NCBI GenBank assembly: GCA_965243135.1
Contig: OZ251539.1
Span: 2,689,812-2,753,811 of the forward strand
Source of the DNA: Alphaproteobacteria bacterium
Lineage (GTDB): Bacteria; Pseudomonadota; Alphaproteobacteria; MPNO01; UBA830
Length of the DNA stretch: 64,000 nucleotides
Direction: 5' to 3'
How positions within the stretch are numbered: position 1 is the first letter of the stretch; each line of letters starts with the position of its first letter. Made by a program: the position numbers and the translations under genes. Of the stretch, positions 6,845-60,511 are shown piece after piece. A model generated the notes under the pieces. The model did not search any database, had not been told where the DNA came from, and saw only the letters and a list, made by a program, of their open reading frames with translations.

Positions 6845-8158
6845 TCAATCGAAAGATTCGATCATCGTGTTGGGCAGGAACAGGGCCAGCTCGGGGACCG
6901 CCAGAAGAAAAAGCAGGCAAAGGGCCATTGCGATCCAGAACGGGACGATCCCGATGAAGATCTCCTTCAGCGGCACGTCTTCCGCGATGCCCTTCACGAC
7001 GAACACGTTGACGCCCACCGGCGGGCTGATCAGCCCCATCTCGATCACGATCACGACCACGACGCCGAACCAGATGGAGTCGTACCCGAGCTCGACGATC
7101 AGCGGATGCACGATGGGCAGCGTCAACACCAGCATCGCGAAACCCTCGAGGAAGGTTCCCAGAATCATGTAGGCGGCCATGATGATCAGCATGATCGCCG
7201 TGCGCGGAAGCTCCGCGTCGATCAGCAGCGCGGCGAGATCGGAAGGAATTTCCGTCAGCGCCATGAACGGGTTGAAGACGTGCGCGCCGATCAGGATGAA
7301 GAAGGCGAGACCGGTCGTGCGGATCGTCTGCAGCAGGACCCTGGACATCGAATCCGCGTTCACCCGTCTGCGCGTCAGAGCCAGAACGAAGGCCAGCATC
7401 GCGCCGACGGCGGCAGCTTCGGTCGGCGTGAAGACGCCGGTATAGATGCCGCCGATGGTAATCAACACGATAAGGATCATCGGTCCCGCCTGGGCGAGCG
7501 AGGACACCCGTTGACCGCCGGTGGACCGTGGGCCGGCCGGACCGAGACCTGGGTTGATCCGGGTCATTATCGCGATCGAAATCATGAACAGCGTCGTCAG
7601 CAGCAGGCCCGGAACGACTCCCGCGAGAAACAGCCGCCCGATCGATTCCTCGACCAGGATGGCGTAGATGATGAAGCCCGTGCTCGGCGGGATGAGGATG
7701 CCGAGGGTGCCGCCGGCGGCGATGGCTCCGGTCGCGAGGCGGCTGGAGTAATTGTAGCGCCGCATCTCCGGCAGCGCGACGCGGCCCATCGTCACGGCCG
7801 AGGCCACGGACGAGCCCGACAAGGCGGCGAAGCCGGCGCAGGCGGCGATGGTCGCAGAAGCCAGCCCGCCGCGCCAGTGGCCCAGACAGGAATAGGCCGC
7901 CGCGTAGAGGTCGCGGCTCATCCCGGATATCGAGGCGAAATTGCCCATGAGGATGAAGAGCGGAATCACGATGAATTCGTAGTTCGACACGATGACCCAC
8001 GCTTCGTCGGCCAGCGTCGACATCGCCGCGTTCCAGCTGTTGAGCGCCCAGATGCCGGCGACGCCCAACAGCGTCATCACGATCGCCACCGGCATGCGCA
8101 GACCGAGCAGCGCGAACAGGGCGAGCAGCCCCAGGATCCCGACCCAAGTGGGACTCAT
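6845..8158 (-). CDS. dctM: TRAP transporter large permease, DctM family
   Basis: 437-aa polytopic membrane protein with typical DctM motifs (GILIPPS, ISPPVGVNVFV). Confidence 0.9.
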   Translation of the reverse strand: MSPTWVGILGLLALFALLGLRMPVAIVMTLLGVAGIWALNSWNAAMSTLADEAWVIVSNYEFIVIPLFILMGNFASISGMSRDLYAAAYSCLGHWRGGLASATIAACAGFAALSGSSVASAVTMGRVALPEMRRYNYSSRLATGAIAAGGTLGILIPPSTGFIIYAILVEESIGRLFLAGVVPGLLLTTLFMISIAIMTRINPGLGPAGPRSTGGQRVSSLAQAGPMILIVLITIGGIYTGVFTPTEAAAVGAMLAFVLALTRRRVNADSMSRVLLQTIRTTGLAFFILIGAHVFNPFMALTEIPSDLAALLIDAELPRTAIMLIIMAAYMILGTFLEGFAMLVLTLPIVHPLIVELGYDSIWFGVVVVIVIEMGLISPPVGVNVFVVKGIAEDVPLKEIFIGIVPFWIAMALCLLFLLAVPELALFLPNTMIESFD

Positions 8159-8162
8159 GCGT

Positions 8163-8681
8163 TCATGGCGGCGGCGCGTCTGCCTCGCCGCGCCAGGCGC
8201 GCAGCGCCATCACGAAAAACGTCAGGGCGAATACGGCGCTGCCGGCAATCATGACGGCGATGAACGGGGAGTGCGGGATTTCGATCAATTCCGTCGCTTC
8301 GCCGATTTCCATCGCGTCGCCTAACAGGACGATGCAGCGCCAAGTCAAGAGCGCCACCAGCAGCGAAGAAAGGATCCGCATCGTCACGTCCGTCCAGCGG
8401 GTGAGATTGGGGCGTCCGAGTCCGGAAATCACGTCGACGGCGATATGCCCGCCGGTCCAGCCGCAGTAAGCGAAACCGAGGAACGCCACCGGCACGAGGC
8501 TGACCGAGGCGAGGTCCGTTCCGCCCAGCGGGGGCGCGTTGAAAACGCGGCGCATCAGGACCGAATAGCAGACGAGCGCCATCAGCCACATCAAGGCGAC
8601 GCCTGCGACGATCGCCATCGCCTTGACCGAGCGGTCGAGCGCCTTTTCGGCCCCGGTAAATTCTACGGTATCCCGCTCCAT
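8163..8681 (-). CDS. dctQ: TRAP transporter small permease, DctQ family
   Basis: 172-aa, 4-TMS protein immediately upstream of dctM with 4-nt spacing; operon order dctQ-dctM-(380 nt)-dctP. Confidence 0.8.
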
Positions 8682-8750
8682 CCCGCTCCCCGCTTCGCCC
8701 GGCGACGGACTTGCCGTCCGGCCGGCAGGGTTCGCGCGCCGTTCGAGAGG

Positions 8751-8827
8751 TGGCGCACCCGACAGGATTCGAACCTGTGACCTCTGGCTTCGGAGGCCAG
8801 CGCTCTATCCGGCTGAGCTACGGGTGC
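8751..8827 (-). tRNA. tRNA-Arg (anticodon CCG)
   Basis: Minus-strand read GCACCCGTAGCTCAGCCGGATAGAGCGCTGGCCTCCGAAGCCAGAGGTCACAGGTTCGAATCCTGTCGGGTGCGCCA gives a cloverleaf with anticodon loop CUCCGAA and encoded CCA. Near-identical to E. coli tRNA-Arg(CCG). Confidence 0.85.
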
Positions 8828-9030
8828 GATGCGCCGTTCCGCCGCCATTGATAGCACGGAGCAGGATTCGCGGCAAGCGCTCGCGCGAGGAAGCGACGCC
8901 CAGCACCTGCGGCTCTCCGCCGATTTCCTTCCGTTTCGGCGTTCTTGCGCGGGCATTCCCAGATGGGGAAGGCGGTTCGCGGTCGCAGTTCCGACGGCGT
9001 CCCGCAACGGGACGCCGCCCGGACCGCCCT

Positions 9031-9315
9031 CTACTCCTTGGCGCGTTCGATGATCACCCTGCCCCGTCCGCGCCGAATGTGGTAACCGCCGCGCGGAATT
9101 CGCAACTTGCCTTCTTCGACCATAGGCGTGAGGGCGGCGGTGAGCACCGCGACGCCCGGGTCCTCGGGAGCCTCTTTGCTCTGCTGCCCCATCCATTTCC
9201 CGAACGCGTCGTCGGCGATATCCGGTCCGAGCGATTTCCTCAGAGCGGTGAGTTTACGTAGCTGACCTTTCGTCAGTTGGCTTTCGTCGAAGCTTGTCAT
9301 CGATCCTCTTTCCAT
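9031..9315 (-). CDS. Hypothetical small protein (94 aa)
   Basis: Only coherent ORF in the interval, with protein-like composition (MERGSMTSFDESQLTKGQLRKLTALRKSLGPDIADDAFGKWMG...). No family recognised. Confidence 0.35.
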   Translation of the reverse strand: MERGSMTSFDESQLTKGQLRKLTALRKSLGPDIADDAFGKWMGQQSKEAPEDPGVAVLTAALTPMVEEGKLRIPRGGYHIRRGRGRVIIERAKE

Positions 9316-10296
9316 TGTTTATGTCCCCGAGGGGACGAACGCAACGACGCGAATCTAGTGCAATCCGGAGTCGAAAGTCAACGGGCGTTTCGAATCTTTA
9401 TCGGGAATTTTTTCGGCAGAGAAGCGACGCATCGGCGGCGAACGGCCGGGCGAGGCCCAATCGCCGCTCGTCCGTTCTACGCGCCGACGGGCAGTTGCGA
9501 GACGGAAACCGAATCGGAACAGGCGTTCGCGACTCCGGCCCGCAACCGCTGCGGCGTGGAAAATCGTCGCCGTCCATCGTGGAACGCAGGCGCGAATCGA
9601 CATTGGTTCGGCATTGGCTCAAACGGGCGAACGCTTTCCGGATTTTCGCTTGCAGTCGTCCGTTAAGCGGTCTCCTCGCGCCTCCGCCGTAGCCGCCTCG
9701 GTTCGTTCGTCCGAACGTCGCTTTGTCTTCCGATGCATGCAAGCGTACAGGGCGCAATCTCCATGCGTTCGGAGGCATTGTTCCTGGCGGAAAAGGCGTT
9801 CGTTCCGTCAGCAACGAAACGTCGTTGTATTTTCGTCGGATCGCAAGAATTTGCGCGAAAAGCGACGGCTTCTCCCCTCTGCGGTCGGCGAAGCCACCGA
9901 ATCCGCGTCGATCCGGAGCTCGTTCGAGCTGCCGGGGATTTTCTGGAACGCTCGCCGCAGCCGCCGTTTTCGGCTCGAGCCTGCCGTCCGCGCCGCTGTC
10001 CCCGGAAAACGAGCGCTACGTTGCCAAGAACTGCGCGACGGACGGCCGTTGGCCGACAATCCCGACAGCCATTTCGAACGCGGCGGGCCGAATTTTTTTG
10101 CGCGTTGCGGCGCGACGCGCCGGCATTTCGTTGCGCGACGAAGCGCGGGCCTCGGGCTTCGCGCGTTCGGCGTTCGAACCGCGCGCATTCGAAGCAGGGC
10201 TTCGGCGGACGACTTCCCGTCGGCATTCCGCGCAGTTGCGGTCGGAGAGAGGCGAACTTCCCGAAAGCGGCCGGCCCGCGGCGCGCAGGGAAACTC

Positions 10297-11436
10297 TTAG
10301 CCGCGAACGGAAGGGGGAGTTTCGCGAATGCTTTCGCGCGACTCCGATCTCAAGCGTTGCCGCGCGGACCGATGCCCGCGCCCCGCGGTGATTCGCGCGC
10401 CGGCCCCGAAGAGCGGAGCGAGAAACGGAAGATCCACAAGGCCCGGTCGCCGGGCGGCGCCGGATTTCGATCGAAGCGACATCGCCGCCGGGGCGTCCGA
10501 GCCAGAGGGCAACGGGGCCGCGGAGTCCGCGATCCAGGCCGCTATGTCGTCGAGCGCGACCTGCGCGTTCAGGTCGCGCAACAGCATGTGCCAGCCGTCC
10601 CGGTAAAGGACGACCCGGGCGTGCGCCCTGCGGAACAAGGCGAGCGCGGGTTCCGGAGGGACGAGTTCGTCCCGCGCGCCGAAAAGGACCAGCGACGGCA
10701 ACCGCGGCGCGGCGGCGAGGGCCGCATCCATTGCGTTCACCAATCCCTCGACGGCGTCGATCCGCGTCCGCTTGACGATCAGCGGATCGCGGCCGAGCGC
10801 GCGCAGCATTCCGACGTTGTCGGACGCCTGCACGTTCAACCCTTCGGCGGTGAGCGGATACCAGGGGATGGTCCGAGCCGTCAACCAGAGAGCCGCGCTC
10901 GCGAAGAAGCCGAGCCGGCGCCGGCCGCGCAGCGCCGGAGCGACGAGAACGAGCCCGTCCGCCCGCAGCGTCGGCGCCGCAATCATGGCGATCGCTCCGC
11001 CCATGCTCTCGCCCAGCACGTAGACCGGAATGCCGGGATGGCGGGTCCGGACGAGATCGAGGGCGGCGGCGGCGTCCGCCGCCATGGTCTTGTGACCGGC
11101 CCAGATGCCACGGTGCGGCGCTTCGCCGAACCCGCGCTGATCGTACGCGTAGGTGGCGATGCGCTTTTTCGTCCAGTATTCTCCGGGTCGTTCGAAGGCG
11201 CGGGAATAATCGTTGAAGCCGTGGAGCGCAAGGATGACGGCGCGCGGCCGCCGGTCCGGCATCCAGCGCCTCAGCGGAAGGACCGCGCCGTCCGCGGCGA
11301 CGATCCGGTCGTCTTTCAGTTGCGGCGGCGAGAGGAAGGGGCCGGCCGGCTCGACGCGAGGAGCGCACGCGCCGAGCGCCAGCGCGCCGCAAAGCGCCGC
11401 GAAAATCGTCGGCAGGGGCGGTTGCCTTACCGGCAC
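10297..11436 (-). CDS. Alpha/beta hydrolase (lysophospholipase-like) lipoprotein
   Basis: Lipobox LALGAC near the N-terminus, HGFNDYS, nucleophile elbow GESMGG, and a C-terminal His in GWHMLL. Confidence 0.65.
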   Translation of the reverse strand: MPVRQPPLPTIFAALCGALALGACAPRVEPAGPFLSPPQLKDDRIVAADGAVLPLRRWMPDRRPRAVILALHGFNDYSRAFERPGEYWTKKRIATYAYDQRGFGEAPHRGIWAGHKTMAADAAAALDLVRTRHPGIPVYVLGESMGGAIAMIAAPTLRADGLVLVAPALRGRRRLGFFASAALWLTARTIPWYPLTAEGLNVQASDNVGMLRALGRDPLIVKRTRIDAVEGLVNAMDAALAAAPRLPSLVLFGARDELVPPEPALALFRRAHARVVLYRDGWHMLLRDLNAQVALDDIAAWIADSAAPLPSGSDAPAAMSLRSKSGAARRPGLVDLPFLAPLFGAGARITAGRGHRSARQRLRSESRESIRETPPSVRG

Positions 11437-11514
11437 GTTCGACTATCATTTCCCGCCGCGCCGGCTTTCCCGGGCGGGCGGGAAACGCGCTTGCAGGCTG
11501 CGGAGAAACGGAAA

Positions 11515-11676
11515 ATGCTGTTGCCGCCCGATATCGTCGAGGTCGAGACGACGGAAGTGTCCTGCGACGGCGGGGAACTCGGACATCCGAAAGTGTATCT
11601 GGCCCTGCAGGACGGCGAGGTCGAATGCCCGTACTGCGACCGCAAGTTCGTTCTCAAGCCGCGTTCCGCCCCCTGA
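11515..11676 (+). CDS. Zinc-finger domain-containing small protein (53 aa)
   Basis: ATG at 11515 with GGAGAAA RBS; MLLPPDIVEVETTEVSCDGG...VECPYCDRKFVLK has a C..C...C..C zinc-ribbon conserved in alphaproteobacteria. Confidence 0.6.
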   Translation: MLLPPDIVEVETTEVSCDGGELGHPKVYLALQDGEVECPYCDRKFVLKPRSAP

Positions 11677-11689
11677 CGGGCCGGCCGCC

Positions 11690-12211
11690 TCAGACCGGCG
11701 CCAGCACCATCACCATCTGACGGCCTTCCATTTTCGGAAACTGCTCGATCCTGCTCGTTCCGTCGAGGTCGCTTCGCACCCGGTCCAGAACGGCGAGGCC
11801 GCGCTCCTGGTGCGCCATCTCCCGGCCTCGAAAGCGCATCGTCACCTTCACCTTGTCGCCGTCGTCGAGAAACTTCCTCATGAACCGCATCTTGATTTCG
11901 TAGTCGTGATCGTCGATTCCGGGCCGAAGCTTGATTTCCTTGACCTCTATCGTCTTCTGCTTTTTGCGGGCTTCGTTCTTCTTCTTCTGCTCCTCGTATT
12001 TGAACTTTCCGTAATCCATGATCTTGCAGACCGGCGGAGCGGCTCCGCCGGCGACGACGACGAGGTCCATGCCTGCATGCGACGCGTAATCGAGCGCTTC
12101 GCTTCGGGAGACAACGCCGATTTGCTGGCCGTCGGCGCCGATCAGACGCACCTCGGTCGCCTGGATCGTTTCGTTCACGGGCCGCTCGTCCCGCACGGGC
12201 GGCGCCATCAT
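11690..12211 (-). CDS. infC: Translation initiation factor IF-3
   Basis: 173 aa aligning to IF-3 ([16 protein letters not shown]...[15 protein letters not shown]...[11 protein letters not shown]). ATG at 12211. Confidence 0.85.
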
Positions 12212-12281
12212 TGGAGGTCTTGCGATGGATTTTCTCCTTTGCTCGTTTGTCTTTCCGGTCCGGCTCGTTCCGCCGTCGGCG

Positions 12282-14208
12282 TCATGGTGAACGGCATCCG
12301 TCCGCAAGTCTAGCCACAGCCTCTTCGAGCGCAAGAACTTCCTGTTCCTTGCCGCCGAGGCTGCGCAGCGCGACCCTGCGGTTCTCCACCTCGCGCCGGC
12401 CGACCACAAGAATGGCGGGCACCTTGGCGAGGCTGTGCTCGCGCACCTTGTAGTTGATCTTTTCGTTGCGAACGTCGAGTTCCGCCCGAACGCCTGCGCC
12501 CTCCAGCGCGCTCCGGACTTCCTCGGCCCAGGCGTCGGCGTCCGACGTTATCGTCGCCACGACGGCCTGAACCGGCGCCAGCCACATCGGCAGGCGCCCG
12601 GCGTAGTGCTCGACCAGGATGCCGATGAAGCGTTCGAACGAGCCCAGAATCGCCCGGTGAAGCATGACCGGGCGGTGCTTCCTTCCGTCCTCGCCGACAT
12701 AGGCGGCGTCCAGCCGCTCCGGCAGCACGAAATCGACCTGCAGCGTGCCGCACTGCCAGTCCCGCCCGATCGCGTCGCGCAGCACGAATTCCAGCTTGGG
12801 GCCGTAGAACGCGCCCTCGCCCGGGTTCGGCTCGTAGTCGAGGCCGGTCGCCTCGACGGCCTCCACGAGCGCCGCTTCGGCGCGGCTCCAGACCGCGTCG
12901 TCGCCCGCCCGCACCGGCGGACGGTCGGCGAACTTCACCGCCACGTCGGAGAACCCGAAATCGGCGTAGACGCTCGTCAGCAGTTCGCAGAACGCCGCCG
13001 TTTCGGACGTGATCTGGTCCGCCGTGCAGAAGATGTGCGCGTCGTCCTGGGTGAAGGCCCGCACCCGCATCAACCCGTGCAGCGCCCCCGAAGGCTCGTA
13101 GCGATGGCACGAGCCGAACTCCGCCATGCGCAGCGGCAGGTCGCGGTAGCTGGTGATGCCCTGGCGGAATATCTGCACGTGGCCCGGACAGTTCATCGGC
13201 TTCAGCGCCAGAATCCGGTCGTCGTCGGTTTCCGCGGTGAACATGTGCTCGCGGAACTTGTCCCAATGGCCGGACGCTTCCCAGAGCCCGCGGTCGATGA
13301 GCTGCGGCGTCTTCACCTCGACGTAGCCGGCTTTCTCGAGGCGCTTCCGGACGTAGGACTCGAGCGCGCGGTACAGCGTCCAGCCCTTGGGATGCCAGAA
13401 GACGCTGCCGACGGCCTCCTCCTGGAAATGATACAGCTCCATCTCGCGGCCCAGCCGCCGGTGGTCGCGCTTTTCCGCCTCCTCGAGCCGTTCGAGATGC
13501 GCGGCCAGTTCCTTTCCGTCCCGCCACGCGGTGCCGTAGACCCTCTGCAGCATTTCGTTGCGGGAGTCTCCGCGCCAATAAGCGCCCGCCACGCGCAGCA
13601 GCTTGAAGCCGCCGCCGACGTGGCCGGTGGACGGAAGGTGCGGCCCGCGGCACAGGTCGAACCACTCCCCCTGCCGGTAGATCGAAACGGTTTCGCCGGC
13701 CGGGAGGTCGCGGACGATCTGCGCCTTGTAGCTCTCGCCGAGGCCTTCGAAGAGGCGGATCGCCGCCTCCCGGTCCATCTCCTCGCGCGCGAACGCTTCG
13801 TCGCGGCCGACGATTTCGCGCATCCCGGCCTCGATCTTTTCGAGATCGTCGGTCGTGAACGGCGCGTCGCGCGCGAAATCGTAATAGAAACCGTTTTCGA
13901 TCGCCGGGCCGATGGTCACCTGCGTGCCGGGGTAGAGGCGTTGCACGGCTTCCGCCATGACGTGCGCCGCGTCGTGCCGGATCAGTTCCAGCGCTTCGTC
14001 GGACTTGCGGGTTACGATCTCGACGGCGGCGTCGCGATCGATCGGCCGGGCGAGATCGCGGATTTCTCCGTCGATCCTGACGGCGATCGCCGCCTTCGCC
14101 AGGCCGGGTCCGATATCGGCCGCGAGTTCCGCTCCGGTCACCGCGTGGCCGAAGCGGCGTACGCTGCCGTCCGGCAGGGTGATGTTCACGCCGTCCATGT
14201 TCCGTTCG
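12282..14208 (-). CDS. thrS: Threonine--tRNA ligase
   Basis: 642 aa from ATG at 14208 ([11 protein letters not shown]). TGS, editing, class II catalytic ([28 protein letters not shown]) and anticodon-binding domains present. Confidence 0.9.
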
Positions 14209-14323
14209 CCAGATTCCAGAATTCGACTGCCGCCGCGCCGGGCGTTTAACGCAATCCCGCCGTCGCGGCAACCTCGGCGCCGCGGTCCGCCGCCGGTTCC
14301 GGCGGCGGCGAGCGGACGTTCCG

Positions 14324-15457
14324 TCATGCTTCGAGAAGTTCGCGGTAAACTGACATCGTCCGGTCGCACATCAGGGTTTTCGTGAAGTTCTTCTCTATAT
14401 GGTCGCGCGTGCGCCGGGCGTTGGCGACCCTCTCTTCGGGCGTCATCGCCAGCGCCTCGCGCAGCGCGCGCGCGAGCGACGCCGGTTCGCGGGCCGGGAC
14501 GAGCCAGCCGTTCTCGCCGTCGATCACCGTCTCCCGCAGGCCGCCGAGGTCGGTCACGATGACGGGACGGCCCATCGCCTGCGCCTCGACGGAGACGCGG
14601 CCGAACGGTTCCGGTTCGACGGGAGCGAAAACCACGGCGTCGGCCAGCATGTAGGCGGCGGCCATGTCGCGGCAGGGCTCGGTCAGGCGCACGATCCCCT
14701 CCAGCCCGTTCCGCCGGATCTGCGCCCGGAGTTTCTTCCGGTAACGCGGGCTGCCGTGGTCCGCGCCGACGAGCAGTATGCGGTAGTTCGGATGATCGAG
14801 CTGGCGGGCGGCCTCGACGAGGACGCTGTATCCCTTGCGTCGGCTCGGCCGGCCGGGCGACATGATGACGTACGCGTCGTCCGGCAGGCACCACTCCCGC
14901 GCCAGCTGGACGATGCGCTCCTGCGACACCGCGTGAGGATCGAAGATGTCGGTGTCGACGCCGCGAGGGATGGTCCGCAGCCGGTCCGCCGGAACGCCGT
15001 AGACTTCCGACACGTGGCGTCTCGTGAATTCGGATACGGCGATGACGAGATCGCCGCTCGCCATGACGCTGTTGTACGGCTTCTTCAACGGGTAGCCGCC
15101 GCCGTAAAGCCCGTGGAAGGTGGTGACGAAGGAAACGCCCTGGCTCCGCGCGGCCGCGCGGGCGCTCCAGGCGGGCGCGCGGCTTCGGGCGTGCACGATA
15201 TCGATTTCGTAGTGGCGGATGATCCTTTCGATGAGCGCCACGTTGCGCCGCATCGTCCAGGGGTTCTTCGAGCACAGCGGCGCCGTTACGTGAATCCCGC
15301 CCGCCCGCTCGACGTCCTTGGTCATGGTGCCGCCGGCCGAGGCGACGACCGCTTTCCATCCCTCGGCCGCCAAGGCCGCGGTGATTTCGACGGTGCCGCG
15401 TTCGACGCCGCCGAATTCCAGACGGGGCAGCACCTGCAGAACGGTGGGAACTTTCAC
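14324..15457 (-). CDS. Glycosyltransferase family 4 (GT1-fold)
   Basis: GTG at 15457 preceded by GAGGAG RBS. EX7E-like region ([30 protein letters not shown]). The ORF-track N-terminal extension was rejected. Confidence 0.75.
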
Positions 15458-15515
15458 CGTTCGCTCCTCGATAGTATTACTGACGATGGACGCGTCCAAC
15501 GAAGGCCGACGCCCG

Positions 15516-23794: not shown

Positions 23795-24394
23795 ATGCAT
23801 CAGGCAGATCTCTCCACCGCAATGTCGCAAGCCAATAGGTCCGAGACGCGCGATAGTTTCGACTCGGAAATCGCGCATGAGGATATCGTTCGGCGTGCGG
23901 TGGCAAGGTTCGATCTCGAGTTCAGGCGCGGGATCGACGCTACCCAGGGAACCAGCACGCACCAGGCCAACGCGAGTTCCCGATCGCCTGTTACCGACCG
24001 TAGGCAGGTCGACCTTTCCCGAATCGTGGATTTGCCGAGATTGCCGGTTCGGCGAATGCCCGCGACGCGGTTTCATGCCCTGCAGGAGTGGGAGGGCTAT
24101 GTCGTCGAGATCGGCGGCAAGGAATTCACGGCGCGGCTGACCGACATCACGGCCGGAGCGTCGTATGAGCAGGAAGAAGCGATTATCCCCCTTTCGGAGG
24201 TCTCGGACGGCGATGCCGAGAAGATGCGCGAGGGGAGCGTCTTCCGCTGGGTGATCGGTTACGAACGCTCTGCCTCCGGAACCAAGAAGCGCGTTTCCCA
24301 GATCGTGTTTCGCGACCTTCCGGCGATCACCGAGGCCGACCTGCGAGCCGGCAAAGCGTGGGCACGGGAGACGATGCGGTCGTTCGGGTTGTGA
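23795..24394 (+). CDS. Hypothetical protein (199 aa)
   Basis: ORF with a protein-like C-terminal half (LQEWEGYVVEIGGKEFTARLTDITAG...). Overlaps the start of the next gene. Confidence 0.35.
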   Translation: MHQADLSTAMSQANRSETRDSFDSEIAHEDIVRRAVARFDLEFRRGIDATQGTSTHQANASSRSPVTDRRQVDLSRIVDLPRLPVRRMPATRFHALQEWEGYVVEIGGKEFTARLTDITAGASYEQEEAIIPLSEVSDGDAEKMREGSVFRWVIGYERSASGTKKRVSQIVFRDLPAITEADLRAGKAWARETMRSFGL

Positions 24395-25801
24395 CGGCGG
24401 CGGAAACGCTTCCGGGACATGACGAGATCGAACTTGCGCTTTTCGGCCCGGGGTACGGCGAGAGCGTCGTCATGCATATCGGCGACGGTGAATGGGTGGT
24501 CGTCGACTCCCGCATCGACAAGGACGGCAGACCGAACGCTCTGACCTATCTGGAGAACCTCGGCCTCGATCCGGCCGAAGTTGTCGTTCTGATCGTGGCG
24601 ACTCACTGGCACGACGACCATATCCGCGGGATGGAGCGCGTGGTCGAGGCACAGGGCCCGCTTTTGTTGCTCGGCTGCGCTAGGTCTCCAGGAATTTCTT
24701 TCCATTGTCGGCGCTCTCGAAGACCGCAGCTTTTCCGGTTTCGGTTCCGGGGTTCGGGAACTTCACGGCGTCTTCACCCGACTTCGCGGAGCGGCGTCGA
24801 GGCCGACGTTCGCCCTCGCCAACCAACGCGTTCCCATGCGCAACGAGTGCGAGATCTGGTCCCTCTCGCCCGACAGCGGAGTCTTCCAGAATTTCCTGAA
24901 ATCTATCGACGGTCTCGTGCCCGGCACCGGTCAAACCAAGGCTCGACTTCCCGGCCCGACGCCCAACGAGGCGGCGGTCGCGCTCTGGGTCGAGGTCCAA
25001 GACATCGCGGTATTGCTTGGGGCGGACTTGGAGAAGTCGGGCTGGACAGTCATTTTGCGAAGCAAGGAGCGTCCTGTCGGCAAGGCGTCGGCGTTCAAGG
25101 TCCCGCATCACGGATCCGCGAACGCCGACGAACGGGAGGTATGGACGCGAATGTTGGAGTCGGCTCCCTTCGCCGTGCTTGCGCCTTGGCGCAGAGGCGG
25201 CCATGCCCTTCCGGGCGAGAACGACGCGCAGCGCATTCTTTCGCGCACAGGGAATGCCTACGCGACCGCGAAAGACAGCCGACGTGCGCCCAGGCGCCGG
25301 GAAAGAATGGTCGAGCGGAGCATCCGGGAGTCCGGCCTCCAACTTCGAGAGCTGGCGATGTCCCCCGGCTGGCTTAGGTTACGGCGGCCGCTCCACCCAA
25401 AGGCGCAATGGTACAGTCGAGAAGTTTGGGACCGCGTGCCATCTCAAGGACTTCGCTGCGCCGTAGCCGACCGCGACGGCGGGCGTCCGACAAAGCCCGC
25501 GCAAGTCGGCCCGATCAAGCGCGGCCGCCGATCGTCGAACCCGAGTCCGAAAGCGCGAGGAGACTTCATTTCCGGCGACCATCGCACTTCCGAAGGAGCG
25601 CGGCGGCCGTTGACGCCCTCGCGGGCGGGTGCTGTCCTCGCAGCTGTCTACGGACGCGGAGGTTTCCGTTCGCGCTCTGGCTTCATGGGGAGCCCGCGGG
25701 TAATCAACGGAGAAGCGAAGTCGCGAAACAAGACCGGCAAAATCATCGGCCGCGCCCACGATTGCGGCGATTGCAAACGGTTTGCGCTTTCGCCGATATA
25801 G
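24358..25801 (+). pseudogene. MBL-fold metallo-hydrolase (ComEC-like beta-lactamase fold), disrupted by at least one frameshift
   Basis: Frame 1 encodes HxHxDH (IVATHWHDDHIRG) then degenerates near 24660-24700. Frame 2 continues with protein-like sequence including the KVPHHGS motif (24836 onward) and a non-protein-like Arg-rich tail. Confidence 0.4.
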
Positions 25802-25844: not shown

Positions 25845-26888
25845 ATGACCGAATCCAGACGATCTTTTCTCGGCAGCGGCGTTGCCGCGGCGCTGGGAGC
25901 CTCCGCGTTGGCCGCGTCGGCGGCGCATGGCCGCCCGACGATTCGCTGGCGCCTTCAGACCTATGCGAATCCGGCCCTTGCGGAACATGTCGTCAAGCCC
26001 GCGGTGGACGCTTTCAACCGGGCCGCCAACGGCGAAATGGAGATCGAGCTCTTTTTCGCCGACCAGCTCGCGCCCGCAAGCGAGCTTTTCGAGGCGTTGC
26101 GGAACGGCACGGTCGACATCGCGCAATCCGACGACGATTCGATCGCCGCTCCGACCGACGTATCCGTGTTCGGAGGCTATTTTCCGCTTGCCCTGCGATA
26201 CAGCCTCGACGTGCCCGTCCTGTTCAGCCGCTACGGGCTCGGCGAAATCTGGGATGCCGCCTACGCTGAAGTCGGCGGCGTCAAATGGCTGTCGGCGGGC
26301 GCGTGGGACCCGTGCCATTTCGCGACAAGGAAACCGATCCGGCGGCTGGCCGATCTGGAGGGCAAACGCATTTTCACCTTTCCGACCGCCGGACGCTTTC
26401 TCCGGAGATTCGGGGTAGTCCCCGTCACGCTGCCATGGGACGAAGTGGGATCGGCGATGCGGAACGGGGCGCTCGACGGCATCGCGTGGTCGGGAATCAC
26501 GGAGAACTACACGGTCGGCTGGGCGGACGTGACCGAATACTTCCTCACGAACAACATCTCGGGGGCCTGGATCGGCCATTTTTTCGCGAACGAGGATCGC
26601 TGGAACGCCCTTCCTGAGCACCTCAAAACGTTGTGGCGTCTGGCGATGGATTCGTCCCATTATTACCGTCAGCACTGGTACTGGGGCGGCGAGGCCGATC
26701 TCAGGACTCGGGGATCCAGAATGCAACTCACCTCCATTCCGGCCGAGGAATGGGCCACGGTCGAAGCCGAGGCCGACCGGTTCTGGGACGAGATTGCGGC
26801 AGTCAGTCCGCGTGCGAGGCAAGTGGTCGAGATTTTCCGGCAATACAACGCCATCATGGCGAAAGCGGGCCAACCTTACCGCTGTTAG
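25845..26888 (+). CDS. Solitary TRAP-type substrate-binding protein (DctP family) with a Tat signal
   Basis: MTESRRSFLGSGVAAALGASALAASAAHG twin-arginine signal; DctP-like domain. No dctQM adjacent. Confidence 0.8.
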   Translation: MTESRRSFLGSGVAAALGASALAASAAHGRPTIRWRLQTYANPALAEHVVKPAVDAFNRAANGEMEIELFFADQLAPASELFEALRNGTVDIAQSDDDSIAAPTDVSVFGGYFPLALRYSLDVPVLFSRYGLGEIWDAAYAEVGGVKWLSAGAWDPCHFATRKPIRRLADLEGKRIFTFPTAGRFLRRFGVVPVTLPWDEVGSAMRNGALDGIAWSGITENYTVGWADVTEYFLTNNISGAWIGHFFANEDRWNALPEHLKTLWRLAMDSSHYYRQHWYWGGEADLRTRGSRMQLTSIPAEEWATVEAEADRFWDEIAAVSPRARQVVEIFRQYNAIMAKAGQPYRC

Positions 26889-27334
26889 TTCGGCGGCTTT
26901 TTCCGCTCTTGTGCCGGCTCGCCGCGCTTCTGCCCGGCGCGCCGAGGAAAGGAGAAAACTGATCGTATGCGCCAACTCTTTGTCCGTCGCGCAGCCGACT
27001 TCGAGTCGGGGCTGCCCGCCTGCGAGGTTGGCGAGATCCTGCCGGCCCCTGCCGCCCGGCTGCGTTCTCCTTGCGGCGAATTGACTCGCCAGCCCCCCAA
27101 CGGCGGAAACTGCCGGTCGTCTGCGTTGCGCTTCCGACCTCGTAGGGGGTATATGATCGCCAAGATTTTCGTAGACCTTTCCGGGAGCTTCGGTACTGTC
27201 TGGCTCGGGAAAATTTTCTCGCTTCGCGGCAGTTCGTCCATTGGCGATGACGCCTCCTCTGCGGCTACCCGCGAATGCTGTCCGTCTTGGCGGGAATTGA
27301 CGTAATCTTGGCGCATGCGCTTGAGGAAGAGGCC

Positions 27335-30300
27335 ATGGAACCGCCTCCACGGGCAGTTTACGACGACCCTGCACGCCACTGGGACTTCTTGACCCGGCCC
27401 TCGGACGACGACTTCGAAGGTCAGCACTTCGACCGCAAGGAGGCTGGCCAAAGGACGAGCGAAGCTCGGAGACTCGAAAAGCAACTGAAACGACTCCGGG
27501 ATGGTATCGCCGAAACGGTTTCCGCCTTCGCCAACAGCAATGTCGAGGGCGGCCTCCTCGTGATCGGAATCGCTTCCAACGGCGCCGTCGAAGGCGTCAA
27601 CCATCTGACGGAGCGGCAGAAGAACAGCCTCACCGACATTGGGAGCCTGCTCCACTTTCAGGCGGCCGAAGCGAAGCTTCACGTATGCACGGACTCAGCT
27701 GGCCAAAGCAACGCCATCTGTCTGATCTATACCCCCTATGCGGACAGCGGCATCTGCGAAACGCCGGGATCTGCACCGAAAGCGTGGGAGCGACGCGGCC
27801 CCCAGAACGTGCCCGTTACGCTGGAGATGCGAGAGCGGCTCAGAGACAGGAAAAATCTTTCGAATTTCGAAAATGCGTTCTGTTGCCCCTATGACCCAAC
27901 CGATCTCTCGAATGACGTTCTTGCGGAGTTCCGCAAGGTGTTTCTCCCGGAAGCGGTTAAGGACTTCTCGGACGAACGGCTGCTTTATGAGGCGGGGGCG
28001 CTGATCCGCAGGGATGGAGAATACTGGTTTACGAATGCCGGGCTTCTGTTCTTCGGATCGAATCCGCAACGGGTGCTTCCTGCATCGCACGTCCGCTTGT
28101 TGCGATTCGGAGCGATCTCTGGGGATTTCGCTAAGCGCGGGCTGCCTACATTCGACCAGAAGTTTACGGGCCCGGTAACGAAGCAGATCCGCGAAGCGAG
28201 GACGTTCTTCAGAGAATCCGCGTTCTTCAAGCGATATCAAAAGCGTCGGGAGGCAGGCGGCTTCGCCGAGGAACCCGAGTTTCCGCCCACCGTCATCGAC
28301 GAGGCCATAGTGAACGCCGTGGCGCATCGGGACTATCGGACCGCCATACCGATCGAATGCGAAGCCTACGCGGATGCCTTCGTCGTCAAGAACCCAGGCC
28401 GGATGACGCAACGTGACGCCGATCTTCCATCCCGTTTCTCGTTGGCGGATGTCGTGCTCGACTCGATGCCTAGGAATCCCAAGATTTTGGAGTGGTTGAA
28501 GCTGATGCGGGATCCCCGCGGCGCAGCGTACGTACAAGCCATCAGCGAAGGCACGAAGCAGATGGTCACGGCCATGGAAGATCTCGGATTGCCCGCTCCT
28601 TCATTCCGCCTGGCCTCGAACGAGACATTGATCAAGATCGAAAGCAAAGCTGAAGAACGCGAAGCCGCTATCCTGGCCGCGAACGAAGACAAGCCAACGG
28701 AATTCTGCAATCTGTTTCTCCTGAGGTTTCGACAGCAAGGAAATCCGGTCGGGTACGATGCCTTCGGCTCGCGGTATGGAGAGATCGTCAAGACGCTGCG
28801 CGACGCTCTCAAGGGAAACGGATGGCATATCGACAGGGATGGATTCAGCAGGATATTGGCGCATAGAAAAGGCATGGAGCTTGAAGCGCCGGAAGACGTG
28901 AGATCCATTTTGCGTTTCTATCCAGCGTACGAATTCCAGATTCGAGAGTATCATCGGCGCTATTATTTGTGCATCGACTATAAATGCTTGGCTCTCAACG
29001 TAAGGAAGCTCTCCGTTGCGAGACAACGACTCGCCCGAACCGATCTGGAAGGCCGACGTTGCATCGCGGAGAAGCACGGATGGAGGGAAGGCCGTCTGTC
29101 TGAATTCGGCGACGAATTCGCGCAAGTCCGGTTCTTTGATACCGAAACGGAAGAGTCCGTTTCCGTCGATAAAGTTATTCCCAATGTCTCCAATGCGATG
29201 TTGGAAACCATGCTGAAGAAGGAAGGATCCTCGTTCGATTTCTCTGCTGCGCTCCGAAAGCACAGTTTGGTCACGAGGTCGAACGCCGCGAAGGAACGGG
29301 CGGAGAGAACGCTGACTATGGCGAATCATATTGCGGATACGGTGTTTCCATTGCGACATTGCGACCTCGACATAGACGTCGTTTCCGATCCGGTTCGACT
29401 TTCTGAACGAAAAGGATCTTCGAAAGGCGAAATGTTCGTTCGACGCTTGCCGGAGCCGGAGGCGGAGTTTCGGCAACGCGAGCTGTCGCGAGATATCCGG
29501 ACCGGAATCACGAAGTACGGTGCATATGACGATCAACCGCAGCGGATCGAGCTGATTCCCGTTTGCACGAATTCGATGCGAAAGGGAATGGAAAAATTGA
29601 TCGGTCGCTTGGTAGGGGGACGGCATAGATACCGTGGATCCGAACGCACTTTTGCGGCGGAGTTCTCGTATTCGACGATCGTCTCCGTGGATCGCGTCGA
29701 AAATATCCGGGGAGAAATCGAACGTCTGCTGGACCGGCGGCCAAAAGGCCACGCCGACGCACGGTCCCTCTTTCTCGTTTACGCTCCGGAAGAGGGCTAT
29801 TCACGCGATGACCATACGGCGCCATATTTCGCCAACAAGAGACTGTTGCTGGAAAGAGGCGCGCCCTGTCAGATGGTTGATACGCCGACACTTGAGAACG
29901 CCGATTGGAAGGACCTGAATCTGGCCTTGAACATCTGCGCCAAATGCGGCGTTCGACCCTGGGTCTTGCCCGATAGAATCCCGGAAGCGGATTTTTTCGT
30001 GGGACTGTCCTATACGCAATCCGAAGACGGTCGGCGAATCATGGGTTTTTCCAACGTATTCAACAGCTACGGCAGGTGGGAGTTCTATCGCGGAAATGCC
30101 TCGTATTTTGATTTCGAGGATCGAAGCGTTCGGCTTGCCGGTTTGATTGAATCAACGTTAGAAAGACTCGAATCCCGACTGTCTTCGACTCCTCGTGTGG
30201 TGTTCCAATACTCCGCAAGGCTTTCGCGGCTTGACCGGATGGCGATTCTCAGGGCAGCCCGCAAGATTCGTCCGGAAGGAATTTATTCTTTCGTCTGGAT

Positions 30301-30697
30301 TAACTCCCATCACAATATACGATTCTATGACAGTCGTCCAGACACGGACGGAAGTCTTCGCCGGGGCAGCTACGTTGAGGCGGGCGCGAATAAGATATAC
30401 CTGTCGACAACCGGTTACAATCCGTATCGCCGGGCCATGGGAACGCCGAAACCGCTAGAAGTCTCTGCTTTTGTCGACCGACCGGACAGCGACGGCCACC
30501 AACCTGATCTTCGGATATTGGCCTTGCAGGTTTTGAGTCTCACTAAGCTGAATTGGGCTTCCACGGATGCGTTTTGCGGGGAGCCGATCACGCTCAAGTA
30601 CGCCAGAGACATAGCCTATTTGACGGCCGCTTTCCTGCGCCAATCGGAGCCGTTCAACCTTCATCCTTCTCTGGAGACGACGCCATGGTTCATTTAG
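27335..30697 (+). CDS. Fusion protein: Schlafen-like AlbA_2 + HATPase_c_4 (COG2865) N-terminal module, linker/APAZ-like region, then Argonaute MID and catalytically inactive PIWI domains (pAgo)
   Basis: Single 1120-aa ORF; alternative ATG at 27275, preferred ATG at 27335 with GAGGAAGAGG RBS. N-terminal EGQHFDRKE...VSAFANSNVEGGLLVIGI (AlbA_2) and IDEAIVNAVAHRDYRT...VVKNPGRM (HATPase_c_4). MID: PYFANKR...APCQMV...NLALNICAKCGVRPWVL (Y-K-Q-K pocket plus KxGG-PW motif). PIWI: ADFFVGLSYTQ where the first catalytic Asp is replaced; C-terminal ...LKYARDIAYLTAAF...TPWFI tail. Confidence 0.7.
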   Translation: MEPPPRAVYDDPARHWDFLTRPSDDDFEGQHFDRKEAGQRTSEARRLEKQLKRLRDGIAETVSAFANSNVEGGLLVIGIASNGAVEGVNHLTERQKNSLTDIGSLLHFQAAEAKLHVCTDSAGQSNAICLIYTPYADSGICETPGSAPKAWERRGPQNVPVTLEMRERLRDRKNLSNFENAFCCPYDPTDLSNDVLAEFRKVFLPEAVKDFSDERLLYEAGALIRRDGEYWFTNAGLLFFGSNPQRVLPASHVRLLRFGAISGDFAKRGLPTFDQKFTGPVTKQIREARTFFRESAFFKRYQKRREAGGFAEEPEFPPTVIDEAIVNAVAHRDYRTAIPIECEAYADAFVVKNPGRMTQRDADLPSRFSLADVVLDSMPRNPKILEWLKLMRDPRGAAYVQAISEGTKQMVTAMEDLGLPAPSFRLASNETLIKIESKAEEREAAILAANEDKPTEFCNLFLLRFRQQGNPVGYDAFGSRYGEIVKTLRDALKGNGWHIDRDGFSRILAHRKGMELEAPEDVRSILRFYPAYEFQIREYHRRYYLCIDYKCLALNVRKLSVARQRLARTDLEGRRCIAEKHGWREGRLSEFGDEFAQVRFFDTETEESVSVDKVIPNVSNAMLETMLKKEGSSFDFSAALRKHSLVTRSNAAKERAERTLTMANHIADTVFPLRHCDLDIDVVSDPVRLSERKGSSKGEMFVRRLPEPEAEFRQRELSRDIRTGITKYGAYDDQPQRIELIPVCTNSMRKGMEKLIGRLVGGRHRYRGSERTFAAEFSYSTIVSVDRVENIRGEIERLLDRRPKGHADARSLFLVYAPEEGYSRDDHTAPYFANKRLLLERGAPCQMVDTPTLENADWKDLNLALNICAKCGVRPWVLPDRIPEADFFVGLSYTQSEDGRRIMGFSNVFNSYGRWEFYRGNASYFDFEDRSVRLAGLIESTLERLESRLSSTPRVVFQYSARLSRLDRMAILRAARKIRPEGIYSFVWINSHHNIRFYDSRPDTDGSLRRGSYVEAGANKIYLSTTGYNPYRRAMGTPKPLEVSAFVDRPDSDGHQPDLRILALQVLSLTKLNWASTDAFCGEPITLKYARDIAYLTAAFLRQSEPFNLHPSLETTPWFI

Positions 30698-30949: not shown

Positions 30950-31657
30950 CTACGCGCCGCTCCCTATGGCGACCGCGTTCTTGTGAACGTCGTCGTACAT
31001 CAGATGCTGGATTTCGAGCATCTGGCGAACGGTCTTGAGCACGAGCGTGCGCTCGTCCTCCGTGCGAGCGAACTGGTCGAGAAGCTTTCGGCCGACATCG
31101 GAATGCTCTTCGTCCGCACTGTCGTGGATCACCCAGTAGGCGACCTCTTCGTCGCTCAAACCGAACTGTTCCTGGAGATTGCGAGCGATCTTGACGTACA
31201 GTCCGGGTATCGCCGCCTCGCCCGCCAGCATGTGCGCGGCGACGCCTTCCAGGAAGCTTTTCGAGCAGATTTGGGTGAAATAAGCCTGAAACGCCACTAC
31301 GCCGGCGCAATACGGGGGATCGTACATTTGTTCCGGCGTCAGCCCCATGCCCCTCGCGTAATCGAGATAGAGCCGGTGGTGCGAGACTCCGTTTGACATC
31401 AGGCGCCCGGTCGCCTCTTCGAAGGCCACTTCGGCGATCAACTCGCGCCAAGCCGGATCGGGACAGATCACGTAGAGATTGCCGTGATAGTTGTGATTGT
31501 GGAGCGGTATGCCGCCATGCTGCTGACAGATGTAGCGCGACTGCTCCAGATTCCACCTGCCCTCGACCATGCCGGTCCAGAGCGGATGTCCATACATCGG
31601 CAGTTCCCCGTGGATTTCCGAAATCCGATCGAGCACGCCCTGCGTCGTCAATGTCAT
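30950..31657 (-). CDS. TenA / PqqC / heme-oxygenase-like family protein
   Basis: 235 aa from ATG at 31657 (AGGAG RBS). All-alpha composition with conserved His/Glu/Tyr positions typical of the TenA_C fold. Confidence 0.55.
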   Translation of the reverse strand: MTLTTQGVLDRISEIHGELPMYGHPLWTGMVEGRWNLEQSRYICQQHGGIPLHNHNYHGNLYVICPDPAWRELIAEVAFEEATGRLMSNGVSHHRLYLDYARGMGLTPEQMYDPPYCAGVVAFQAYFTQICSKSFLEGVAAHMLAGEAAIPGLYVKIARNLQEQFGLSDEEVAYWVIHDSADEEHSDVGRKLLDQFARTEDERTLVLKTVRQMLEIQHLMYDDVHKNAVAIGSGA

Positions 31658-32401
31658 CGTGCGTCTCCTGGCAGACCGAAAGCGCATTGAACATATCCTT
31701 CGGCCGCAAACCGGTCGAGCGCCCGGCGTGGCAGCGCCGCCTTGCATGGGTTGCAGGCGTCAGGATCGGACGCGGTCCTTGTTCCGACGCCGGAGTCGCG
31801 TCTTCCGCAGAGCATAGTCCGCACGGCTGCGGAGCGGAAACAAATCGCGATCCTGAAGCTCGGCGTGGAAAACTGTCGACGGTCGGCACGGCTGGATCAA
31901 TTGCGCTTTGGTCCCTTGCGTCTCTTCGGGACACCATCCTCCGGCAGACCGGTTCTTGCCGCTTCTCCACCTCGCGAAGCGCACTCTCCGGTGCCAGGCG
32001 AAGCTTCTCGACCTTCGGAAGTCTCCGGAGCGCCGCTGTCGGCGCCCTCCCCGACCGGCGTCGTCTCGGGCGTCGCAGGCTGAATGTGCGGCCGCCATGG
32101 CGGCCGCGAGAAAAAGGCGTCCGGAAGAGCGATTCGCTAAACCCTGTTCACGCTCCGCGAGCGAACGGCCTACGCCGGGTCCTCTGGTTTCCGTCTTTGA
32201 AACGCGCTCGACTTGAACTTCTTGAATCGCAGGTCCATCGCCTCGTCCGAACGAGCTGGCGGCCCGCAAGACGCGGCGGATCTCTCGATGCGAACGCTTT
32301 TTCAGAAAAGACGGAAAACGCGATCTCGTCGCAAGTCAATCGATCACGCGGAAATCGTCGAAAACCATGAAGCCATGCAAAAGTAAACGCCGTTGGGAGG
32401 A

Positions 32402-59545: not shown

Positions 59546-60306
59546 ACGCCGAAATCAGCCTCCGGCTCGACGCCGTGACCGTGGATTTTCCCGTTTACGG
59601 CGCGGACAGCCGCTCGCTCAAGAACAATCTCCTGCGCCGGAGCACGGGCGGGCGGATAGGTCGGGACGCCGCGCAGCGGCTTTCGGTGCGCGCTCTCGAA
59701 GACGTGAAGTTCGCGCTTGCTCACGGCGACCGCGTCGGGCTGGTCGGCGCGAACGGCGCGGGCAAGACGACGCTGCTACGGGTGCTCGCGGGAGTCTATC
59801 AGCCGACGTTGGGGCGCGTGGACCGCCGGGGACGAGTGGCCGCGCTGTTCAATCTGTCGCTCGGCATCGATCCTTATTCGACGGGATACGAGAACATCAC
59901 GGCGCGCGGAATGTTCCTCGGGCTCATGCCCTCGGAAATCCGCGAGCGGACCGCCGAGATAGCGGAGTTCACCGAGCTCGGCGACTATCTGGCGATGCCG
60001 GTGCACACCTACTCGACCGGCATGCAGTTGCGACTGGCGTTTGCGGTGTGCACCTGCATCAAGCCCGAGATTCTGCTGATGGACGAGTGGATCGGGGTGG
60101 GCGACGCGGCCTTCGTCAAGAAGGCGGAGCGGCGGCTGGAAGAATTCGTGGGGCGGGCGGGGATCCTCGTGCTGGCTTCGCACAACGCCGCCTTGCTCGA
60201 GCGCGTCTGCACAAGGGGTATACTGTTGGAAGCTGGACGGGTGCAGGCGTTTGGACCTATCGACGAGGTGCTGCGGGATTTCAGAGCGGGGATTCGTCAG
60301 TCCTAG
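59542..60306 (+). CDS. ABC transporter ATP-binding protein (Wzt/KpsT family)
   Basis: ATGA overlap with the permease. Walker A GANGAGKTTLL, signature YSTGMQLRLAFA, Walker B ILLMDEW. Confidence 0.85.
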   Translation: MNAEISLRLDAVTVDFPVYGADSRSLKNNLLRRSTGGRIGRDAAQRLSVRALEDVKFALAHGDRVGLVGANGAGKTTLLRVLAGVYQPTLGRVDRRGRVAALFNLSLGIDPYSTGYENITARGMFLGLMPSEIRERTAEIAEFTELGDYLAMPVHTYSTGMQLRLAFAVCTCIKPEILLMDEWIGVGDAAFVKKAERRLEEFVGRAGILVLASHNAALLERVCTRGILLEAGRVQAFGPIDEVLRDFRAGIRQS

Positions 60307-60511
60307 CCCGGATATCTCACCACAACTGGTTGCCTCCGATTCGCAGTATATAAAATCAAGCTACTATACGACCTGCGAAAGGAAACCCCACAGACTGTAA
60401 ACCGTTGCAACTTGAGTTTCAACGCCTCGGAAGCCGCGGGTGTACGTCAATTTCTTGAGATTTGCATTGACGCCAAGGAGGGCCTAGATTTTCTGTATGT
60501 ACTAATGCGCC

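Follow-up and report, generated by a model that had tools for sequence, protein, structure and literature searches.

A gene on the plus strand of a contig from an Alphaproteobacteria bacterium (assembly GCA_965243135.1, contig OZ251539.1, positions 2,689,812 to 2,753,811; this whole stretch of 64,000 nucleotides is called the window) was found to encode, in one polypeptide, what is by sequence and predicted fold a Schlafen (SLFN)/AlbA_2 domain, a GHKL ATPase domain, and the catalytically dead core of a long-B prokaryotic Argonaute (pAgo). The gene spans 27335..30697, and its product (1120 amino acids plus stop) is, by the same comparisons, an orthologue in the SLFN-pAgo family, so that its architecture is a known one, and the gene adds a member to an anti-phage family rather than a new type of system. 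It is highly probable that the gene, as an SLFN-pAgo orthologue with RzAgo of Runella zeae as its prototype, provides an autonomous single-polypeptide system against phages and mobile genetic elements. An earlier sequence-only reading of the window had proposed a new pAgo architecture without any characterised system. This novelty fails because long-B pAgos with an N-terminally fused Schlafen (PF04326) domain were already recorded in 2018 (Ryazansky et al. 2018, PMC6299218), PADLOC-DB v2.0.0 (2023) already contains a full-length profile, PDLC02394, and RzAgo was characterised by structure, biochemistry, and in vivo work in a recent preprint (Kuzmenko et al., 30 May 2026, bioRxiv 10.64898/2026.05.29.728809).

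Residue numbers of the domain layout and of the motifs refer to the 1120-residue protein. The chain is predicted to open with the Schlafen (AlbA_2) nuclease domain (27335..27814, residues ~1-160), followed by the GHKL (Bergerat-fold) ATPase domain (27815..28675, residues ~161-447), which is part of the "Schlatpase" supradomain. A short connector and the L1/PAZ/L2 lobe of a long-B Argonaute (28676..29494, residues ~448-720), the MID domain (29495..29974, residues ~721-880), and a PIWI domain without the slicer tetrad (29975..30694, residues ~881-1120) complete the protein; all lie on the plus strand, and the boundaries of the three middle segments are approximate. Pfam, PADLOC, phmmer, and Foldseek agree on the fusion of a Schlafen-like AlbA_2 plus HATPase_c_4 module to an Argonaute, as had been proposed. 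Of the Pfam domains whose search was suggested with that proposal, SLFN_AlbA_2 (residues 48-180) scored 35 bits against a cut-off of 25.3, and HATPase_c_4 (residues 360-451) scored 25.4 bits (E = 1.4e-5), slightly less than its cut-off of 26; Piwi was unmatched, and the Argonaute was recovered by PADLOC, phmmer, and Foldseek. Since the N-terminal module matches SLFN11/5/12 and GHKL kinases in Foldseek, both N-terminal folds are confirmed independently of Pfam. For the Argonaute part, 20 PADLOC pAgo profiles match the window protein. Among them, PDLC02394 (1121 positions) covers the entire protein with 1584 bits, and the pAgo_II profile PDLC02379 aligns query residues 508-1139 with its positions 81-723 of 724. 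In a phmmer search against PDB sequences, the long-B pAgo RsAgo (5awh, 6d8a) ranks first (E ~3e-11), and short pAgos give only weak matches (E 1e-6 to 1e-3). The AlphaFold2 model of the window protein (predicted local distance difference test score, pLDDT, 71.6) aligns by Foldseek with full-length RsAgo (E 1.7e-27, ~800-870 aligned columns), and AaAgo and others also align. The two halves of the protein were likewise apparent in a homologue search of 1.84 billion representatives, where stand-alone or otherwise fused AlbA_2 plus GHKL modules align at query residues ~23-465 and plain long-B pAgos of ~700 amino acids align from query residue ~505-545 on.

The ~235 residues by which the Argonaute core extends beyond MID towards the N terminus align to the L1/PAZ/L2 lobe of long pAgos. 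This beta-rich stretch is the highest-confidence part of the AlphaFold2 model (pLDDT ~88-93). Thus, what had been taken for a linker of ~250 amino acids is the folded L1/PAZ/L2 lobe, and the MID and PIWI domains belong to a full long-B pAgo core rather than to a MID-PIWI unit alone. A short-pAgo assignment was rejected on the basis of this lobe and the PADLOC and Foldseek matches; the window protein lacks the combination of a MID-PIWI-only Argonaute with an APAZ effector partner or fusion that defines short pAgos, and Pfam detected no SIR2, TIR, or Mrr domain in it. The core is ~635 amino acids in length versus 777 in RsAgo, and plain pAgos align with it only from their own residues ~70-140 on, which is consistent with the canonical N domain of long pAgos being missing. 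No solved structure of RzAgo was found in the searched copy of the PDB by sequence or by fold.

The homologous fusions whose search the sequence-only reading had suggested are numerous, and 186 full-length members of the family were aligned with MAFFT to assess residue conservation. The SLFN motif E28-x4-D33-x-K35 (27416..27439, within EGQHFDRK, residues 28-35) is widely conserved (of the 186, 177 have E, 182 have D/E, and 181 have K at these positions), and the SAFAN box (27521..27535, residues 63-67) is conserved in the family. An Ex4(E/D)xK motif is catalytic in another bacterial Schlafen tRNase described in an independent paper (PMC13056530). The GHKL catalytic Glu E323 (28301..28303) and the Mg-binding Asn N327 (28313..28315), both in DEAIVN, are invariant, as are the residues of the MID 5′-phosphate pocket, Y831 and K835 (in YFANK), Q846, and K870 (186/186 in each case). 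Y1095 is kept in 177 members. All of the motifs quoted earlier (EGQHFDRK, SAFAN, DEAIVN, YFANK, Q846, K870, and the Y-K-Q-K set of MID) are present; the HATPase_c_4 domain had been recognised, while its role as a GHKL ATPase switch had been missed. In the PIWI domain, S892, S960, and R1091 occupy the positions of AaAgo (1yvu) D502, D571, and D683 in the phmmer alignment, and the corresponding columns of the 186 members hold S/A, S/A, and G/R. Because these three catalytic Asp positions hold S, S, and R, the PIWI domain is predicted to be unable to slice, and an active slicer was excluded.

In the preprint, 78 long-B proteins of 1,071-1,187 amino acids make up the monophyletic SLFN-pAgos, in which SLFN and a GHKL ATPase form the "Schlatpase", the PIWI tetrad is lacking, and no partner genes are fixed, the genes often being located in defence islands (10.64898/2026.05.29.728809). 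The window protein, with its 1120 amino acids, falls within this size range. It combines an SLFN domain bearing E(x)4(D/E)xK and SAFAN, a GHKL domain (PF13749) in which the catalytic Glu and Mg-binding Asn are both present, and a long-B core (PAZ, MID, and PIWI) in the same chain, with no DEDX tetrad at the three compared positions. Extra-long size, placement in the RzAgo clade, lack of a conserved partner, and signs of horizontal transfer are further shared traits. RzAgo itself (WP_028663822.1, 1111 amino acids, at the R. zeae locus L074) has the same domain order, from SLFN/AlbA_2 through GHKL to the long-B core with L1/PAZ/L2, MID, and an inactive PIWI, and is 39% identical to the window protein end to end (778 bits, residues 3-1120). 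By region, the identity is 37% in SLFN, 38.5% in GHKL, 26% in L1/PAZ/L2, 50.6% in MID, and 47% in PIWI. The nuclease Asp (RzAgo D32, window D33), the ATPase Glu and Asn (E314/N318, E323/N327), the MID Tyr and Lys (Y828, Y831; K832, K835), and the second Tyr that reads the 5′-A (Y1086, Y1095) are all kept. In a neighbour-joining tree of MID-PIWI sequences, the window protein lies within a group of ~1070-1200-amino-acid proteins that includes RzAgo, with plain long-B pAgos of ~700 amino acids outside; its MID-PIWI identity is 47% to RzAgo versus 27-39% to plain pAgos. The tree was midpoint-rooted and has no bootstrap support values, so that its placement of the protein is supportive rather than rigorous. 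Unlike RzAgo, the window protein belongs to another subclade, by far the most populous one in metagenomes (at least 120 clusters at 90% identity whose identity to the window protein exceeds 52%), and its nearest relatives are proteins of metagenome-assembled genomes (MAGs) at 80-81% identity. Near the SLFN-pAgo group, the tree also contains P0164 (1199 amino acids): its pAgo core (residues 605-1199) forms a sister to plain long-B pAgos, and it has a different N-terminal extension of ~600 amino acids.

In RzAgo, RNA guides of ~21 nt with a 5′-A, which is read by Y828 and Y1086, direct the protein to single-stranded DNA targets, and the guide induces helical filaments of a protein in which the canonical N domain is absent (10.64898/2026.05.29.728809). 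Tetramers are driven by ATP binding and hydrolysis (E314, N318), and the SLFN dimer resembles bilobed mammalian SLFN; tRNA cleavage needs target DNA and ATP and is abolished by D32A, while the D32A and E314A mutants no longer protect against phage and D72A gives enhanced protection (10.64898/2026.05.29.728809). On this model, the dead long-B core of the window protein would load small 5′-phosphorylated RNA guides in its MID pocket, probably with a preference for 5′-A. The guide-loaded protein would be kept inactive as an oligomer (a filament in RzAgo), and the protomers would be freed once the guide pairs with complementary DNA of the invader. The Schlafen domains may then be paired to form an active bilobed nuclease, which would cut tRNA, and the infection would be aborted. 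The guide-directed sensor that activates a Schlafen RNase for abortive infection, as envisaged by the sequence-only reading, agrees with the RzAgo mechanism, and the functional residues for it are conserved. The domain set, the folds, the residue conservation, the lack of the slicer tetrad, the placement in the RzAgo clade, and the lack of a conserved partner were computed for the window protein. The type of guide and target, filament formation, ATP dependence, the tRNA substrate, and the defence phenotype are assigned by homology only.

Among other known systems, long-B pAgos with separate effectors (RsAgo, PDB 5awh, 6d8a) are the closest match to the window Argonaute core in both sequence and fold. 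They share the inactive PIWI domain and, presumably, the logic of RNA guides and DNA targets. In contrast to the window protein, plain long-B pAgos are ~700-780 amino acids in length, have no Schlatpase module, and have their effectors encoded separately. Short pAgo systems (SPARSA with SIR2-APAZ, SPARTA with TIR-APAZ, and SPARDA with DREN-APAZ) also use an inactive Argonaute as their guide-dependent sensor; in them, too, target recognition shifts the oligomeric state, which frees a toxic effector for abortive infection. However, short pAgos lack the PAZ lobe and require an APAZ partner, and their effectors are NADases or DNases. SIR2-Schlafen-APAZ partners of short pAgos have been listed as og_40 (Ryazansky 2018, PMC6299218). 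Bacterial Schlafen defence proteins, either stand-alone or in other fusions (Perez Taboada et al. 2026, Nat Microbiol, PMC13056530), and the mammalian SLFN11/12/13 resemble the window protein in having a tRNase effector freed by a fused sensor. That sensor is an Ig-like, NACHT, or helicase domain, whereas it is an Argonaute in the window protein, which furthermore has no SLFN N-lobe and carries a GHKL ATPase instead of an SF1 helicase.

Several points weigh against a simple transfer of the RzAgo scheme to the window gene. A single preprint describes the only characterised family member, whose identity is 39%, and the window protein is known from sequence alone. HATPase_c_4 stays 0.6 bits short of the Pfam cut-off, Pfam Piwi is unmatched even at E<=1, and no defence island or defence neighbours surround the gene in the window, where it is flanked by DctP, haem-oxygenase-like, hydrolase, and monooxygenase genes. 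The L1/PAZ/L2 lobe is the region least conserved with RzAgo. Since this lobe, which builds the filament interfaces and reroutes the guide in RzAgo (10.64898/2026.05.29.728809), is only 26% identical, filament-based autoinhibition is the least secure step. The "RDKD" of RzAgo, which holds D72, is replaced by "ASN" (within "GIASNG") without any acidic residue, and the basic patch K46/K47 is replaced by R55/D56. Is the window protein then an SLFN-pAgo wired unlike RzAgo, with a different regulation or substrate? It might form no guide-induced filament, have a higher basal nuclease activity, cut rRNA, mRNA, or DNA, or use another guide and target chemistry. The diverged lobe, the replaced basic patch, the canonical E28 in place of the atypical H27 of RzAgo, and the lack of an acidic residue at the position of D72, whose D72A mutant is a hyperactive RzAgo, all speak for this, as does the variation of substrates between tRNA and rRNA among mammalian SLFNs (10.64898/2026.05.29.728809). 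On the other hand, the guide pocket with the 5′-A readers (Y831, Y1095), the GHKL pair, and the nuclease motif are all kept, and MID and PIWI are 47-51% identical to those of RzAgo. Such a different wiring is considered unlikely.

A related, similarly tentative suggestion is that the whole window subclade may be regulated differently from RzAgo, by another mode of autoinhibition or with another RNA substrate, because of its canonical Glu, the lack of an acidic residue at the D72 position, and the diverged L1/PAZ/L2 lobe. If this is true, RzAgo would be an atypical prototype. By the alignment, RzAgo is already atypical in two respects: Glu stands at the first position of the SLFN motif in 177 of the 186 sequences including the window protein, while RzAgo has H27, and D72 lies in a one-residue insertion common to only four of the 186. 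As far as the sequences tell, the differences from RzAgo leave room for altered regulation, and membership of the window protein in the SLFN-pAgo family is unaffected.

In the window, a single ORF runs without interruption from 27275 to 30697 (plus strand, 1140 amino acids). Translation almost certainly starts from the ATG at 27335 and not from that at 27275, because a Shine-Dalgarno sequence read from the DNA, GAGGAAGAGG (27323..27332, plus strand), lies 2 nt before it, a database protein 100% identical to the window protein (P0001) is 1120 amino acids in length, and the alignment of the best PADLOC profile begins at residue 23. Inspection of the sequence upstream of the ATG at 27275 revealed no Shine-Dalgarno sequence, and DNA homology to the nearest relatives (loci L002 and L001) begins at ~27306. 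The 20 extra codons from the 27275 start are probably not translated. A sequencing frameshift joining two genes was excluded, since RzAgo and more than 180 full-length homologues align colinearly with the ORF; the single ORF of 1120-1140 amino acids claimed previously is thus intact.

Upstream of the gene lie FtsY, a short low-GC stretch that contains an unknown ORF and a metallo-beta-lactamase (MBL)-fold gene with a frameshift, and a DctP-type solute-binding gene. Judged by the similarity of FtsY, the host is probably an uncultured alphaproteobacterium. The gap to the DctP gene is 446 bp. A Haem_oxygenas_2 gene on the minus strand (30950..31747) follows downstream in convergent orientation, then, likewise convergent, an alpha/beta hydrolase and a luciferase-like monooxygenase. 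The gap and the convergent gene had both been described correctly. A terminator-like hairpin with a T-run (26879..26896, plus strand), found by a consensus scan whose count was no higher than in shuffles, ends the DctP gene, which suggests that the SLFN-pAgo gene may be transcribed on its own. No conserved partner gene or operon was found: among 80 loci, each neighbour family is in 11 or fewer, and none of them is in the window, and L002 and L001 share no flanks with the window. In these two "Gammaproteobacteria" MAGs, DNA similarity is limited to 27306..30697, with no synteny of the flanks. Other relatives adjoin type I restriction-modification systems, a type III methyltransferase together with a UvrD-like (UvrD/GajB-like) helicase, or HmaA/DrmD-like helicases. 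Mobile-element boundaries at the gene were rejected, only short imperfect repeats at chance level being present. No integrase, transposase, or tRNA gene lies near it; the sole tRNA gene is that for Arg-CCG at 8751..8827.

The gene has a GC content of 55.8% and a third-position GC content (GC3) of 64%, versus 65.9% GC for the window and a GC3 of 75-83% for its neighbours. This composition, together with the missing flank synteny, the failure to find a sigma-70-like promoter in the 446-bp gap, the relatives broken by insertions (L076 by IS110, and L034), and the frameshift in the nearby MBL-fold gene, would fit a recently acquired non-functional passenger, intact in sequence and silent or decaying in its host. 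However, the 3.36-kb ORF is unbroken, has a strong Shine-Dalgarno sequence, and keeps every functional residue, and the promoter scan covered one consensus type and is no proof of absence, so that a mere passenger is very improbable. Still less probable is a DNA- or RNA-binding transcriptional regulator without a defence role, as the names of homologues ("predicted HTH transcriptional regulator", "putative DNA binding domain-containing protein", "RNA-binding domain-containing protein"; HTH, helix-turn-helix) and the common annotation of COG2865-type AlbA_2 plus HATPase_c_4 proteins would have it: such names mirror the N-terminal Pfam matches only, Pfam detected no HTH domain in the window protein, its C-terminal 635 residues are an Argonaute core, and its nuclease and ATPase catalytic residues, on which phage protection by RzAgo depends, are kept.

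The MBL-fold (Lactamase_B) gene in the upstream region 23795..25470 begins at 24358 and, around 24650-24690, shifts out of frame 1 into frame 2, so that it is a pseudogene or the assembly is in error here. Its start is overlapped by the small unknown ORF (23795..24394), and the 23-24 kb stretch has a GC content of 58%. The MBL-fold gene was rejected as a defence partner on account of weak LmuA matches (E 0.007 and 7e-5, for both halves), the frameshift, and the absence of LmuB. Elsewhere in the window, a lower-GC kilobase (9001..10000, 61.8%) adjoins the tRNA-Arg(CCG) gene, and a second dip (59.4%) lies at 60001..61000; the two may be small acquired segments.

Several observations were made on the relatives of the window gene. 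In two Poribacteria MAGs (L050, 9974..14934; L073, 9998..14990), a stand-alone Schlatpase gene lies directly 5′ of a complete SLFN-pAgo gene. Its product (429-431 amino acids, Pfam AlbA_2 and HATPase_c_4) is ~40% identical to window residues 3-432; the N-terminal module is thus doubled in tandem. In L076, an IS110-family transposase gene (11558..13164, 443 amino acids) splits the SLFN-pAgo gene at residue 517/518, and in L034 an insertion of ~1.6 kb (10253..11861) at residue 92 carries a 503-amino-acid ORF with no Pfam match. A subclade 63-66% identical to the window protein (L004, L005, L009, L011, and L066, also L048 and L069) is hosted by Binatia, Phycisphaerae, Planctomycetota, and Arenicellales. 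Throughout this subclade (coordinates are those of L004), a type III-like DNA methyltransferase of ~950 amino acids (~7094..9943) is encoded upstream of SLFN-pAgo and a UvrD/GajB-like helicase of ~705 amino acids (~13367..15484) downstream; this block is kept across phyla and is missing from the window. Among 72,556 plasmids, the sole full-length member is on a 51-kb plasmid of Rubrobacter radiotolerans (NZ_CP007517.1, 43995..47354; 53% identity, 100% coverage), where it is annotated only as "RNA-binding domain-containing protein". No full-length SLFN-pAgo was found in the phage collection. Gordonia phages (e.g. gp38, NC_031061.1, 30186..31379) encode a Schlatpase-like protein whose identity over residues 58-491 is 27.8% and which is annotated as a hypothetical protein, a DNA helicase, or an HTH protein.

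For the field, the window gene adds little that is new, the architecture, the mechanism, and the defence role being already in the preprint; mechanistically, the inference drawn from the sequence alone was right. The label given to such proteins by annotation pipelines is still "HTH transcriptional regulator" or "RNA-binding domain-containing protein", and their core escapes Pfam Piwi. Thus, such genes will keep seeming novel to naive scans. As a well-conserved protein of the dominant metagenomic subclade, the window protein offers comparative biochemistry a second candidate, which has the canonical catalytic Glu and, at the "hyperactive" position, a residue that is naturally non-acidic.

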